Positions 2,708 through 48,884 of a stretch of DNA of 48,884 bases are shown here, one piece after another. Below the pieces are notes generated by a model, which was not told where the DNA came from, did no database searches, and saw only the letters and a program-made list of their open reading frames with translations. How positions within the stretch are numbered: position 1 is the first letter of the stretch; each line of letters opens with the position of its first letter. Source of the DNA: an uncultured bacterium (GTDB lineage Bacteria; Hydrogenedentota; Hydrogenedentia; Hydrogenedentales; JAEUWI01); assembly GCA_963977445.1 (NCBI GenBank), contig CAXBPH010000009.1, forward strand, positions 1 through 48,884. Reading direction: 5' to 3'. The position numbers and the translations under genes are program-made.

Positions 2708-2900
2708 GGGTAATTTCCTTCGAATTTTGGGAGCCACAGCAGATTAATGCGTCGAAAATCTTCAAAAGGGGCCAAAACGCCGCCAAAACCGAGGGGGAAG
2801 GCGGGAAAAAGAACGGACCCATTTCAGCCGCTAGTATAGCGCGTATCAACGGGTTAAGGCACCTCCCAAGTTTGTGAAGCGTAAAGCCGTAAAAATATAT

Positions 2901-2929
2901 TTGACAAAAGAACGGTCTTGCGCTATAGT
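2901..2929 (+). promoter_or_regulatory. sigma70-type promoter for the first DUF1559 gene
   Basis: TTGACA (2901-2906), 17-nt spacer, TATAGT (2924-2929), with an AT-rich UP-like stretch immediately upstream. Confidence 0.75.
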
Positions 2930-2935
2930 TTGGTT

Positions 2936-3256
2936 GTGAGGGCGTTACGGAAAGCGCAGGTTGACGTCAGAGGCCCCGGCTGATGACGATTAAACAGCAA
3001 CAACGCCCCCACGGGACCCGTTCCGGTGCACCGAGCCGGTCCCGCCTGACAGTTGAAGTCCCGCGATAGCCCGGACATGGCAGCAAGTCGGATTGGAAGA
3101 CGATTTAGCTGGCCGTCGGCCGGAGGCAACATACGGACCTTCGGGTCCAACCCGGGGCGGGTTGAGTCACAACAACGCCCCCATGTAGCCCCCGACTGGT
3201 TATCGCTTTTCACGTTGGTAGGTTAAGGAACAATTCAACACTCTGGAGTTACCCCT
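2936..3256 (+). promoter_or_regulatory. Long structured 5' leader (candidate riboswitch or attenuator, class not assigned)
   Basis: About 320 nt between the promoter and ATG. Contains a GGACC-TTCG-GGTCC hairpin (3135-3148) and a duplicated 14-mer CAACAACGCCCCCA (2998-3011, 3170-3183), each copy complementary to an upstream GGGCG tract. Confidence 0.4.
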
Positions 3257-45638: not shown

Positions 45639-46988
45639 ATGTCTCGTATCATTACGATTGGTAACGCTCAGGGATTTTGGGGCGATAGTATCGATGCGCC
45701 GGCACGGCTGCTGCAGCAACAGCCCGATCTGGAGTATCTGACCTTGGATTACCTGGCAGAGGTGTCCCTCAGTATTCTGGCGTTGCAGCAGTCCAGAGAC
45801 CCGACCGCGGGATTCGCGCGGGATTTTCTGCGTGTCCTGGAGCAAATTATACCCTTGTGGCAAGCTGGCAACCAGACGCGAATCGTGTGCAATGCCGGGG
45901 GACTCAATCCGGTGGGTTGTGCCGAGGCCTGCGCAAAATTGTTGAAGGAAGCAGGCGTCTCAAAGCGGATCGGCGTGGTTACGGGTGACGACGTGCTTTC
46001 CGACATCCAGGGTGATCCGGACAATGCCAACTTCCGCAACTGGGAGACGGGGGAGCCCATTAAAACGGTGCTTGACTCTCTCGTTACGGCGAATGCGTAT
46101 ATTGGGGCATCACCGGTCGCCGAAGCGCTTGCCTTGGGCGCGGACATTGTTATCACGGGGCGGGTTGCCGACCCAAGTCTTGCGGTGGGCATCGCCCAGC
46201 ACGAGTTTGGGTGGTCCACGACCGACTACGATCGACTGGCCGCAGCAACCATCGGCGGGCATCTTCTGGAATGTGGGACCCAGGTTTGTGGCGGTATTTC
46301 CACGGGATGGCTCGATCTTCCAGACCCCGCCAACATGGGATTCCCCTATATAGAGCTTGGCGACGATGGCAGCCTGATTGTAACCAAACCCGTAGGGACC
46401 GGGGGCGCCGTGACGGAATGGACCGTTAAGGAACAGCTTCTCTATGAGATTGGCGATCCAAAAAATTATTTGAGCCCCGATTGTCGGGTGAATTTTACGA
46501 CACTGCACGTAGACGACCTGGGTAGCGACCGTGTTCGGGTAAGCGGTGCTACCGGAACTAAACCCACGGACACCTACAAGGTGAGTGCAACTCACCGAGA
46601 CGGATATTGGGCCCAGGGAACCTTGACCCTCTTTGGCCGCGACGCTATAGCCAAAGCTGAGCGCTGTGGGGAGATTGTGTTCGAGCGTTTGCGCCAGGCG
46701 GGCTATGAGTTTCCACGGAGTAATGTGGAATGCCTGGGGGCCAATGCCGTTGCGGCAGGCGTACTGGAGCCGACTAGTGCGCTCGAGACGGTGCTCCGTG
46801 TGAGCGTGGCCCACGAAGACAAGGCCGCCGTCGAACGTTTTGCCAAAGAGCTCGCGCCCCTGGTAACCAGTGGGCCCCAAGGCACGACAGGCTACGCGGG
46901 GGGACGTCCGAAGCCGACGCCGGTCTTTGGCTATTGGCCCTGCCTGATTGCGCGGGAACAGGTAATTCCGAAGGTGATGATCTTGTAG
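45639..46988 (+). CDS. Acyclic terpene utilization AtuA family protein, N-terminal part (DUF1446)
   Basis: IGNAQGFWGD, DYLAEV, NAGGLNP, TANAYIG, GADIVITGRVAD, GHLLECG.Q..GG and EQLLYEIGDP..YLSPD. Confidence 0.93.
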   Translation: MSRIITIGNAQGFWGDSIDAPARLLQQQPDLEYLTLDYLAEVSLSILALQQSRDPTAGFARDFLRVLEQIIPLWQAGNQTRIVCNAGGLNPVGCAEACAKLLKEAGVSKRIGVVTGDDVLSDIQGDPDNANFRNWETGEPIKTVLDSLVTANAYIGASPVAEALALGADIVITGRVADPSLAVGIAQHEFGWSTTDYDRLAAATIGGHLLECGTQVCGGISTGWLDLPDPANMGFPYIELGDDGSLIVTKPVGTGGAVTEWTVKEQLLYEIGDPKNYLSPDCRVNFTTLHVDDLGSDRVRVSGATGTKPTDTYKVSATHRDGYWAQGTLTLFGRDAIAKAERCGEIVFERLRQAGYEFPRSNVECLGANAVAAGVLEPTSALETVLRVSVAHEDKAAVERFAKELAPLVTSGPQGTTGYAGGRPKPTPVFGYWPCLIAREQVIPKVMIL

Positions 46989-47029
46989 CGAAGAAATCTC
47001 CGAGACGGAATAATCTGAAAGGTAGTTAG

Positions 47030-48058
47030 TGGACATGATTTACATGATTGACAGGATGAATTTTTGTTTAGATTTAATTGGTCGCTTTTGTGAAGCTGAT
47101 TTGCCGATCGGGTGAACGTAGAAGTCGCGTTGAGCGTATTTGTGTTCATCTTGTAAATCCTGTAAATCCTGTCCAATAAAAGTATTGGCTTTTTGTTCAT
47201 TTCGAGTTAATATGGCGTTCGAAACAAGATTAGCAGGGTAGATAAGGGATCTTTTGAACGTTGATTACGCGGAGAGAGGGGATTTTCAAAATGACTGAAC
47301 AAAAAATGAATGCGTTGACCGAAAAAGTAATTGGCTGTGCGTACGCAGTGCACAATGAGCTGGGTACAGGGTTTCTTGAAAAAGCCTACGAAAATTCGCT
47401 GTCGATAGAGCTGCAAGAGCAGGGCATCGCGAGCATACAGCAGGTGGCCATGCCTGTGTATTACAAGGGAGCCCTTGTCGGTGAGTACTTCGCCGATCTG
47501 TTGGTAGCAGACACGTTGGTTTTTGAGCTCAAAGCGGTGCAGGAGATCTCTAAAATTCACGAAGTTCAGTTGGTGAATTATCTGTGTGCGACAGGAAAAG
47601 ATGTGGGCTTGTTGATTAATTTTGGCGAGTCTGTTCAGGTACGACGAAAGTATCGCGTTTTCCGGAGATAGGTGCAAGACAGAGTTCCAACTTGTCAAAC
47701 GTGTAAATCATGTCCTGTCTCCGAGTGGTTGAGCGACTCAAGAGGGAGGGGAGACCTTGTAAAGGACTTCTTGCTTTTTGTGCCTTTGAGAACGTTCTTA
47801 GACAGGATTAACATGATTAACAGGATGTTTTTGAAGTTGGTAATATCAATCGCCTGCTGCAGTTCGCTTGAACCATGCGGAAGAGTTTTGTGCATTTGCA
47901 AGGGATATTTAGACTGTTCGCCCCATCCTGTAAATCCTGTCAATCATGTCCAATAGTTGAGTGAGTGGTTGGCTCTGGATGACGTGGTAGCCTTGTGAGC
48001 GCGGGCCGAAGTTAAAAATCTTTGGGGCTTGCCAATATGAGACAGGATTAACAGGATT
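47030..48058. repeat. Array of triple 9-mer repeats (consensus (G/T/A)ACA(G/T)GATT) in mixed orientation around the GxxExxY gene
   Basis: Forward copies at 47030-47060, 47801-47827 and 48041-48058. Reverse copies at 47145-47175, 47688-47715 and 47924-47952. Confidence 0.9.
47291..47671 (+). CDS. GxxExxY protein (PD-(D/E)XK nuclease-like)
   Basis: VHNELGTGFLEKAYE (GxxExxY), YFADLLV...FELKA, QLVNYL and GLLINFG. Confidence 0.93.
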   Translation: MTEQKMNALTEKVIGCAYAVHNELGTGFLEKAYENSLSIELQEQGIASIQQVAMPVYYKGALVGEYFADLLVADTLVFELKAVQEISKIHEVQLVNYLCATGKDVGLLINFGESVQVRRKYRVFRR

Positions 48059-48148
48059 GCTTTTGAGGTTGGCGAGTACAAATTGCCATTGGTAAATTGG
48101 TTGCGCTACGGTGAACTCTGGAAGTCCTGCTCAAGAGGAAAGGATAGT

Positions 48149-48484
48149 ATGAGTCCAATGCATCTTTACGACATTGCGAATGCCCGAAGTGGCGACAAGG
48201 GCCGGGGTGCCAATATTGGCGTTCTCGCCCACAGTGACGGAGACTATGCGTTTCTCGTGGAACACCTCAGCGCGGCACGGGTCCAGGAATATTTTCACGC
48301 CATGAATCCGGGCGAAGTGGTGCGCTACGAACTGCCCAATCTCAACGCACTCAATTTCGTGTTGCCCACAATTCTCGACGGCGGCGGAAGTCGAAGTCTC
48401 CGAATTGATGCCCAGGGGAAAGCGCTGGGCCAGATACTCCTCGAGATGGAACTGACGAACAACCGTTCACTACGGGCGAACTAG
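48149..48484 (+). CDS. AtuA C-terminal-like small protein (partner of DUF1446)
   Basis: LYDIANARSGDKG..ANIGV, VVRYELPNLNALNFV...LDGGG..SLRIDAQGKALGQ. AGGA RBS. Confidence 0.88.
   Translation: MSPMHLYDIANARSGDKGRGANIGVLAHSDGDYAFLVEHLSAARVQEYFHAMNPGEVVRYELPNLNALNFVLPTILDGGGSRSLRIDAQGKALGQILLEMELTNNRSLRAN

Positions 48485-48603: not shown

Positions 48604-48884
<281 letters not shown>

Follow-up and report, generated by a model that had tools for sequence, protein, structure and literature searches.

The stretch of DNA analysed here (the window; 48,884 nt of a contig from an uncultured bacterium of the phylum Hydrogenedentota) carries, between the two parts of the host gene atuA, an AT-richer segment of 1.16 kb (46989..48148) with a single gene of the GxxExxY family in an array of inverted tandem repeats. 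Upstream lies the large N-terminal part of atuA (45639..46988, plus strand; PF07287, E 1.8e-143), and downstream, on the same strand, the gene for the ferredoxin-like C-terminal part of AtuA (48149..48484; PF23544, E 2.7e-30). The segment is visible as a drop in GC content, which in 200-nt windows is 0.38-0.50 across 46900-48199 compared to 0.54-0.64 in the adjoining genes, and it is missing from two relatives of the same genus, G003 and G007. The GxxExxY gene (47291..47671, plus strand) encodes a protein of 126 amino acids matched by PF13366 (PDDEXK_3; E 5.5e-40, 136.8 bits, cut-off 22) and TIGR04256 (GxxExxY; E 1.9e-40, 137.9 bits, cut-off 35), which in Pfam and NCBIfam are the only matches of the insert protein, with no match to an HUH Y1 transposase family.

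The six repeat arrays, in the following called arms, are made of the tandem 9-mer ACAKGATTN and alternate between forward (F) and reverse (R) reading, giving the window the mixed order F-R, gene, R, F-R, F. Arm F1 (47026..47060, plus strand, array core 47033-47057) consists of the three tandem 9-mers GACATGATT TACATGATT GACAGGATG and an outer flank and has its inverted partner in R1 (47145..47179, minus strand, core 47148-47172), the two being 86% complementary over 35 nt (47026-47060/47145-47179), 84 nt apart and enclosing no gene. R2 (47679..47715, minus strand, core 47689-47713) is degenerate, with 2 mismatches in 19 fixed positions, and forms with F1 an inverted pair of 37 nt (47031-47067/47679-47715, 78%) between whose arms the gene lies. 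F3 (47798..47827, plus strand, core 47802-47826) and its inverted partner R3 (47924..47955, minus strand, core 47925-47949) constitute a second gene-less unit (47798-47827/47924-47953; 30 nt, 83%, 96 nt apart), and F4 (48036..48058, plus strand, core 48042-48057) has two units only and no partner before the downstream gene. A decayed F-like array, ACAAGATTAGCAGGGTAGATAAGGGAT, may be present directly 5' of the gene at about 47224-47254 (plus strand), a by-eye reading below the scan thresholds. Allowing one mismatch, the two-unit pattern ACAKGATTNACAKGAT has 9 matches in the 48.9-kb window, every one inside 47033-48057, compared to a shuffle expectation of 0.02, and none of 100 shuffles reached 9. 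The part downstream of the gene is built from two diverged tandem copies of a block of about 238 bp comprising R arm, spacer, F arm and spacer (47676..48150, plus strand), with 47676-47925 aligning to 47912-48150 and start-to-start spacings of 236 and 240 nt. The window is a combination of one gene-carrying unit with two and a half gene-less units, partly derived from local duplication. The initial annotation of this DNA had described the AT-richer segment with one GxxExxY gene and six tandem-9-mer arrays, the inverted F/R pairs including one formed by F1 and the R arm at 47688 that brackets the gene, and a re-use of sequence beyond the motifs; GC content, profile matches, pattern scan, repeat search and block alignment reproduce each of these observations.

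Comparison with relatives shows the 1.16-kb segment being an insertion into a formerly overlapping gene pair, and one that is not fixed. Both atuA parts were sought by DNA search of 40 relatives and found in several genomes. In the same-genus genomes G003 and G007 the stop codon of atuA overlaps the start of the C-part gene (ATGA) with no insert, and by-eye reading of the sequences finds this overlap also in G011 and G009 of other genera, the overlap therefore representing the ancestral state of the junction. G005, of the same genus as well, carries a minimal F-gene-R cassette of 613 nt at exactly the same junction, its GxxExxY protein being 67-68% identical to the window protein, and in G004 the junction is occupied by a 1.16-kb insert with the remnant of an R arm directly 5' of the downstream start codon. 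The downstream C-part protein is 3 residues longer at its N-terminus in all three occupied alleles compared to the empty alleles, and the first codons of the window's C-part gene are unlike those of the empty-site alleles; upstream of the insert, the AtuA C-terminus has the same length as in empty-site relatives. The AtuA tree has the topology (G004,(G000,G005,(G003,G007))), G000 being the window genome, and in the GxxExxY tree the window and G005 proteins are nearest relatives (Shimodaira-Hasegawa-like approximate likelihood ratio test, SH-aLRT, 94). For a fixed ancestral spacer with chance repeats there is practically no probability left in view of the matches to ACAKGATTNACAKGAT far above expectation, the empty sites in the same genus and the recurrence of the arrangement across phyla described below. 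The G004 insert (L005, reverse strand, about locus 400-1480) holds at least two opposite-strand open reading frames (ORFs) in place of the GxxExxY gene. Directly 5' of atuA in the same genome (L005, G004:C32, locus 2830-3040) we observed 8-mer arrays, GGCTGTAG/GATTGTAG, of about 10 units and, likewise upstream of the atuA start, the tandem 7-mer CAACTGT with about 9 units.

Among 85 GxxExxY sequences no variation is seen at E30, E79, K81, H90, Q93 and Y97, D69 is conserved in at least 90%, and the putative catalytic set E30, D69 and E79-x-K81 is complete in the window protein. The AlphaFold model (mean predicted local distance difference test score, pLDDT, 94.3) displays a minimal PD-(D/E)XK fold plus two N-terminal helices. 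Its structural neighbours, i.e. 3ijm (Z 8.4), AF1548, R.SwaI, Cas4, Hjc and lambda exonuclease, are generic members of the superfamily of which none stands out, and a sequence search of the PDB with the window protein gave no meaningful match (best E 0.053). Judged by the predicted model, the window protein is a PD-(D/E)XK nuclease-fold enzyme with an intact D...ExK set. From its conserved residues and predicted fold the GxxExxY protein looks active, and 79 of 80 homologous frames are uninterrupted. The only frame with an in-frame stop, L077:2501-2857, carries it eight codons before the end of the match, and the arms at this locus are intact. TIGR04256 members are present in 100 of 121 sampled genomes of the phylum with 1-21 copies each. 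The family was entered as 'Unknown' in the 2012 survey of PD-(D/E)XK proteins, and in the literature on GxxExxY, PDDEXK_3 and PF13366 we found no paper on function, on repeats or on an association of gene and arms.

The association of gene and arms is not restricted to the window. Using the window protein as sole query we collected 80 homologous loci with a protein identity of 52-65%. More than 10 phyla are represented, among them Planctomycetota, Acidobacteriota, Chloroflexota, Bacteroidota, Bacillota, Pseudomonadota, Nitrospirota and Hydrogenedentota, together with Methanosarcinales and others, and the carriers include the cultured Pelotomaculum propionicicum MGP and Plebeiibacterium sediminum AAT. 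Each locus was scored by its best ungapped inverted repeat having one arm in the 300 nt before the gene and the other in the 300 nt after it, with 270 windows shifted by 1.3 or 1.9 kb as controls, the 95th percentile of these as threshold, and 3 of the 80 loci left out for a flank of less than 150 nt. Above this threshold 66 of 77 close-clade loci are bracketed compared to 10 of 270 controls, and the arms are almost always tandem units of the ACAGGATT type. Arrays number 212 in the 136 kb that lie within 700 nt of the genes, compared to 21 in the other 246 kb of these loci. The layouts differ: arms enclose the gene in 18 of the 80 loci, in 7 it is flanked on either side by tight arm-loop-arm hairpins, many of the remaining ones are mixed, and 13 are without an array detectable by regular expression. 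In a wider sample, made up of the best TIGR04256 match from each of 30 genomes of the phylum, 29 of the 30 loci are bracketed (controls 6/105), here by other tandem 8-11-mers such as CACAAAGGN, CACAGAGGN, CACGAAGNN, ACGCGAATGA, CACGGATGAA and CGCAGATGA. Of the five other GxxExxY paralogues of the window genome, four likewise have flanking arrays, made of CACGAAGAN, CACAAAGAA/CGCAAAGAA or CGCAAAGG, and one (C161) has none. Mapped onto a quick and poorly resolved protein tree, the repeat class requires 10 changes compared to a mean of 15.7 for shuffled classes, with 0 of 200 shuffles being as low. As far as the sequence comparison goes, each GxxExxY clade has its own arm sequence, and the same package of gene plus arms recurs across many phyla, archaea included. 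The insertion of the segment with empty atuA sites in relatives, the link of GxxExxY genes with periodic inverted repeats, the clustering of repeat type with protein clade and the PD-(D/E)XK-like nature of the protein had been put forward, or named as points to check, in the initial annotation and are borne out by these data. In the window genome, genes of a further family, TIGR02436 (S23p-like, four-helix-bundle), are also found beside 9-mer arrays (C194:7597-8444, C280:1-800 and C18:27900-28800), where the arrays consist of GTGGGACNN, for which an inverted partner is present, of GTGGACNNN/GACGTGGTG and of GGGACTACA, so that this type of cassette may be shared by a second small-protein family.

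The cassettes mostly follow the direction of host transcription. Based on stop-to-stop ORFs of at least 110 amino acids, the gene agrees with co-directional host neighbours in 43 cases and opposes them in 3, and it shares the orientation of the upstream host ORF in 63 of 75 cases and that of the downstream one in 51 of 66, compared to a baseline of 105 of 152 for consecutive host ORFs. In many loci an arm ends 0-45 nt before the start codon, leaving no room for a promoter, which fits a promoter-less gene that is read from host transcripts, the window copy included. A promoter and terminator scan gave no signal above shuffles. The last arm unit serving as Shine-Dalgarno site was considered and rejected, as it would apply to only 12 of 77 loci and is not general. 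Co-orientation with the host, the missing room for a promoter and the ability of the arms to pair could also be explained by an element of the RNA level, in which the arms would mainly form a duplex for RNase III, the cassette would be tolerated or used to separate cistrons, and the protein would be a passenger or act on RNA with no movement of DNA. An intervening sequence (IVS) of the same build in Coxiella burnetii, for which cleavage by RNase III at the first of its tandem repeats is described (PMC4990558), lends weight to this explanation. The anatomy of the arms makes us regard it as rather improbable.

From 105 strict three-unit arms we derived the consensus TTRG-ACAGGATT-w-ACArGATT-n-ACAGGAT, i.e. 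TTRG followed by three tandem 9-mers with a total length of about 31 nt. The edges of the arms are sharp, conservation reaching background level within 4-5 nt beyond the outer edge and immediately past the inner one. The constant positions permit stems with 78-88% complementarity, but the partner arms do not co-vary at the variable positions. The match at the fourth position is 1.68 of 3 for partner arms compared to 1.40 ± 0.15 for random arms, per-position co-variation z values range from -0.6 to 2.0, and the 120 variable-position pairs are made up of 66 Watson-Crick pairs, 16 sense-strand wobbles, 8 antisense-only wobbles and 30 mismatches, the bias towards sense-strand wobble as a signal of RNA pairing (16 compared to 8) being not significant. 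As RNA, the F3/R3 unit folds no better than shuffles (z -1.3); as single-stranded DNA, F1-spacer-R1 folds with a z of -4.9 relative to shuffles; no Rfam match was found in 46800-48300 at E up to 1. With the arm sequence conserved and the pairing not, the pattern of conservation suggests that a protein recognises the units, rather than that a strict hairpin is formed. RNase III, moreover, needs no clade-specific arm sequences, and the invariant D...ExK set, read from the alignment, argues for a working nuclease.

A related idea, raised in the initial annotation, is that the CAGGAT units are RNA sites bound by a protein, in its most explicit form a decoy titrating a GGA-recognising regulator of the CsrA type. 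The units hold A-GGA-U and a CsrA gene is encoded in the window genome (C74), but about 40-42% of the units have no G at position 4 and are thus devoid of GGA, half of the arms are read as the complement on any transcript, and the other arm families of GxxExxY genes (CACGAAG, CACAAAG, ACGCGAAT) contain no GGA at all. As a general explanation we rejected the decoy on sequence grounds and consider RNA-binding sites of this kind highly improbable.

The arms also occur apart from the gene; a count of such orphan copies had been suggested in the initial annotation. The window genome (7.1 Mb in 464 contigs, 94% complete) encodes only one cognate gene, i.e. the window copy, and contains, spread over six contigs, 14 arms that deviate by no more than one mismatch, as well as four two-unit arrays, of which one lies on a further contig, C175. 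ACAKGATT arms are present at six further loci, mostly as F-spacer-R pairs with spacers of 85-170 nt; at up to three mismatches the genome has 30 matches compared to 7 in the reversed-genome control. At the C100 and C159 sites, relatives keeping both flanking genes (three at C100, all five examined at C159) have intergenic regions that are 158-338 nt shorter and lack the motif, these relatives being 71-87% identical in the flanks and too diverged to place the exact insertion ends; at the C57 site the intergenic DNA of relatives is longer and unrelated. The 15 spacers of the window genome show no similarity to each other or to the GxxExxY protein, by which their interpretation as deletion derivatives of the gene or as mutual copies was rejected. 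In 19 units of G010 the arms and an inner GGAAGAG extension are shared and the loops are variable. An unsupervised scan of the window genome detected more families of inverted tandem repeats, i.e. GTGGGACNN, a 10-mer and two 7-mers. At C100 one intergenic site is held by different repeat families in two species, G000:C100:10960-11390 carrying two ACAKGATT units and the orthologous G005 region (L111, G005:C236) an inverted GTGGACNNN 9-mer array. At the G010 loci L132-L150 the ACAKGATT units are often nested in outer inverted arms, GACAGGATAACTGGAT... or CACAGAGGN, giving the impression that elements have inserted into each other's loops.

Copy numbers differ strongly between related genomes. 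Counted with at most one mismatch (reversed-pattern control 0-1 per genome), the arms number 47 in G010, 25 in G021, 21 in G027, 7 in G020, 5 in G004, 3 in G008, 2 in G005 and 1 in G001, with 0 in both G003 and G007. The arrays appear to break assemblies, so that copy numbers in draft genomes are lower bounds. One contig of the window genome (G000:C420:1-118) opens with TGGGACTTG repeated six times in tandem, after which comes an inverted array. Among the counted relatives, a gene of the cognate clade (at least 55% identity) is encoded only in G005 and in G021, where it has arm hairpins on both sides. The best matches in G010 are 52% and 47% identical, the latter with an internal stop and neither with arrays, and the best match in G027 is 48% identical and flanked by a related 10-mer. 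The units of G010 show no conserved synteny in comparison with G013 and G014.

Arms that are conserved with no constraint on pairing and that persist without a cognate gene in G010 and G027 would also be compatible with host sites for regulation or chromosome structuring, bound by a DNA-binding protein, with GxxExxY being the regulator or a domesticated relative and presence and absence reflecting fast turnover of intergenic DNA. Paired opposite-strand sites with three tandem repeats in Geobacter metallireducens have been read in this way, as sites of global regulators (PMC2700814). The same arms and the same protein clade recur, however, at unrelated loci of more than 10 phyla, archaea among them, which fits horizontal spread rather than a host regulon, and the position of the sites in operon junctions and nested in one another, the range of 0-47 arms among related genomes and the invariant catalytic residues do not fit host sites either. 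We judge this explanation to be quite unlikely.

Our data are best accounted for, with a probability of roughly 0.5, by the segment being a small array of selfish cassettes. These belong to one family, widespread but hardly described so far, for which we infer what part the nuclease plays. According to this model the basic unit would be an inverted pair of arms around a short loop, a spacer of 80-170 nt or a GxxExxY gene, the gene having little or no promoter of its own and being expressed from host read-through transcripts. The arms would be conserved as recognition arrays for the PD-(D/E)XK protein of the cassette, several subunits of which might bind the tandem units and bridge two arms, a perfect hairpin not being needed. 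Cleavage at the arms could then be followed by host recombination or repair, which would copy or reshuffle cassettes and gene-less pairs. At the RNA level, pairing of the arms would probably also yield a long duplex open to cleavage by RNase III, comparable to that of 23S rRNA intervening sequences; such processing would allow the element to sit within a transcription unit at low cost.

Several observations weigh against the selfish-cassette model. Binding and cutting of the arms by the GxxExxY protein are suppositions of the model, and mere physical linkage of gene and arms would equally lead arm types to cluster by protein clade, so that the clustering alone is no proof of recognition. A REP-like hairpin (REP, repetitive extragenic palindromic sequence) is not backed, as partner arms do not co-vary. 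The initial annotation had considered a target duplication at the ends; none was found in 54 F..R units (offsets 0-5, lengths 2-9, |z| never above 2.5 compared to permuted pairs). With loops being unrelated in the window genome as well as in G010, the gene-less units give no impression of having been copied from a single master element. G010 and G027 possess 47 and 21 intact arms and no gene of the cognate clade in assemblies that are 97% complete, so that arms can persist and even multiply without the gene, unless it resides in unassembled DNA. TIGR02436 genes in similar arrays raise the point that the mover of the arms might be something else. The history of the atuA site is ambiguous, as the topology of the AtuA tree is compatible with two gains as well as with a single gain followed by a clean loss. 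The ORF calling behind the orientation test is crude.

For PF13366/TIGR04256, a large family without known function, our analysis provides a tie to a specific and easily synthesised motif. If the protein indeed moves the arms, the cassettes would be mobile elements operating with a minimal PD-(D/E)XK nuclease and not with a transposase or recombinase. This would also explain the origin of ORF-carrying rRNA intervening sequences and of many intergenic 'paired tandem repeats'. Annotators should know these cassettes, which split operons, alter gene starts, as for the atuA C-part here, and break assemblies. In the remainder of the window, an ORF running off its end (48604-48882) has a lipoprotein-like signal (…LALSGC) and a GEGEGE… repeat at the edge.

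Miniature inverted-repeat transposable elements (MITEs) have terminal inverted repeats, lie in intergenic regions and have gene-less derivatives outnumbering the gene-carrying copies, and in all of this the cassettes are alike. They differ from MITEs and their parent transposons in having no target duplication, no shared internal sequence and no protein of a transposase family.

In the system of REP-associated tyrosine transposases (RAYTs) and their REP doublet-forming hairpins (REPINs), the subject of PMC3116915 and PMC3337134, one gene copy likewise lies between short repeats of its own, which also occur dispersed in intergenic DNA as spaced inverted pairs, and the repeat type follows the protein clade. 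The fold is PD-(D/E)XK here whereas it is that of an HUH Y1 (IS200/IS605-like) transposase there, the arms are tandem 7-11-mers here and a single palindrome there, and it is for the cassettes that partner arms do not co-vary and loops are unrelated between copies. Their spread is across phyla, in contrast to REPIN-RAYT systems, which according to the RAREFAN abstract are mostly inherited vertically. Of the analogy to RAYT plus REP or bacterial interspersed mosaic elements (BIMEs) drawn in the initial annotation, the gene-flanking and dispersed inverted repeats stand, whereas the missing co-variation of arms, the unrelated loops and the arms without cognate gene in G010 and G027 do not conform to it.

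Aklujkar et al. 2009 described in Geobacter metallireducens paired tandem-repeat sites of classes 1-3, which they took as regulator-binding (PMC2700814). These are opposite-strand pairs with three to five tandem 7-9-mers each and a variable distance between partners, present in tens of copies per genome and sometimes adjoined by transposons, much as for the arms. They are read there as sites for regulators of the IHF/HU type, no link to GxxExxY being mentioned in the passages on these sites (PMC2700814). The architecture matches that of the cassettes, and the unit sequences, TCTCCGTS[Y] and MTYCTGA, differ.

By analogy in build, the ORF-carrying IVS of 23S rRNA is the closest studied relative. 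In the account cited, the IVS of Coxiella burnetii comprises 428 nt and is considered by its authors a selfish element of unknown origin; it has a terminal stem of 28 bp and three tandem GACAGAT heptamers adjoining the S23p ORF, and RNase III excises it, cutting at the first repeat (PMC4990558). Differences concern the location, which is helix 45 of 23S rRNA there and a position between two protein genes with no Rfam match here; the ORF, which encodes an S23p four-helix bundle there and a GxxExxY protein of nuclease fold here; the excision by RNase III, known for the IVS, the cassette being known from its sequence alone; and the dispersed gene-less arm pairs, which do not form part of the IVS description in that account. 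Shared are the small ORF within terminal inverted repeats, with a stem of about 28 bp there and arms of 30-37 nt here, the short tandem repeats in the arm, GACAGAT there being close to the GACAGGATT unit here, and the position inside a host transcription unit in co-directional orientation. The minimal F-gene-R form found in G005 at the atuA site, and in 18 of 80 homologous loci, has this very build. Tentatively, the comparison might be extended to a so far undescribed class of mobile cassettes, made up of GxxExxY nucleases and their clade-specific arms and occurring in most genomes of the phylum as well as in over 10 further phyla, archaea among them. The nuclease would trigger the copying of such cassettes, with operon junctions and the loops of other such elements as targets, and it is a class of which ORF-carrying 23S rRNA intervening sequences and the paired sites of Geobacter could possibly be members or relics.

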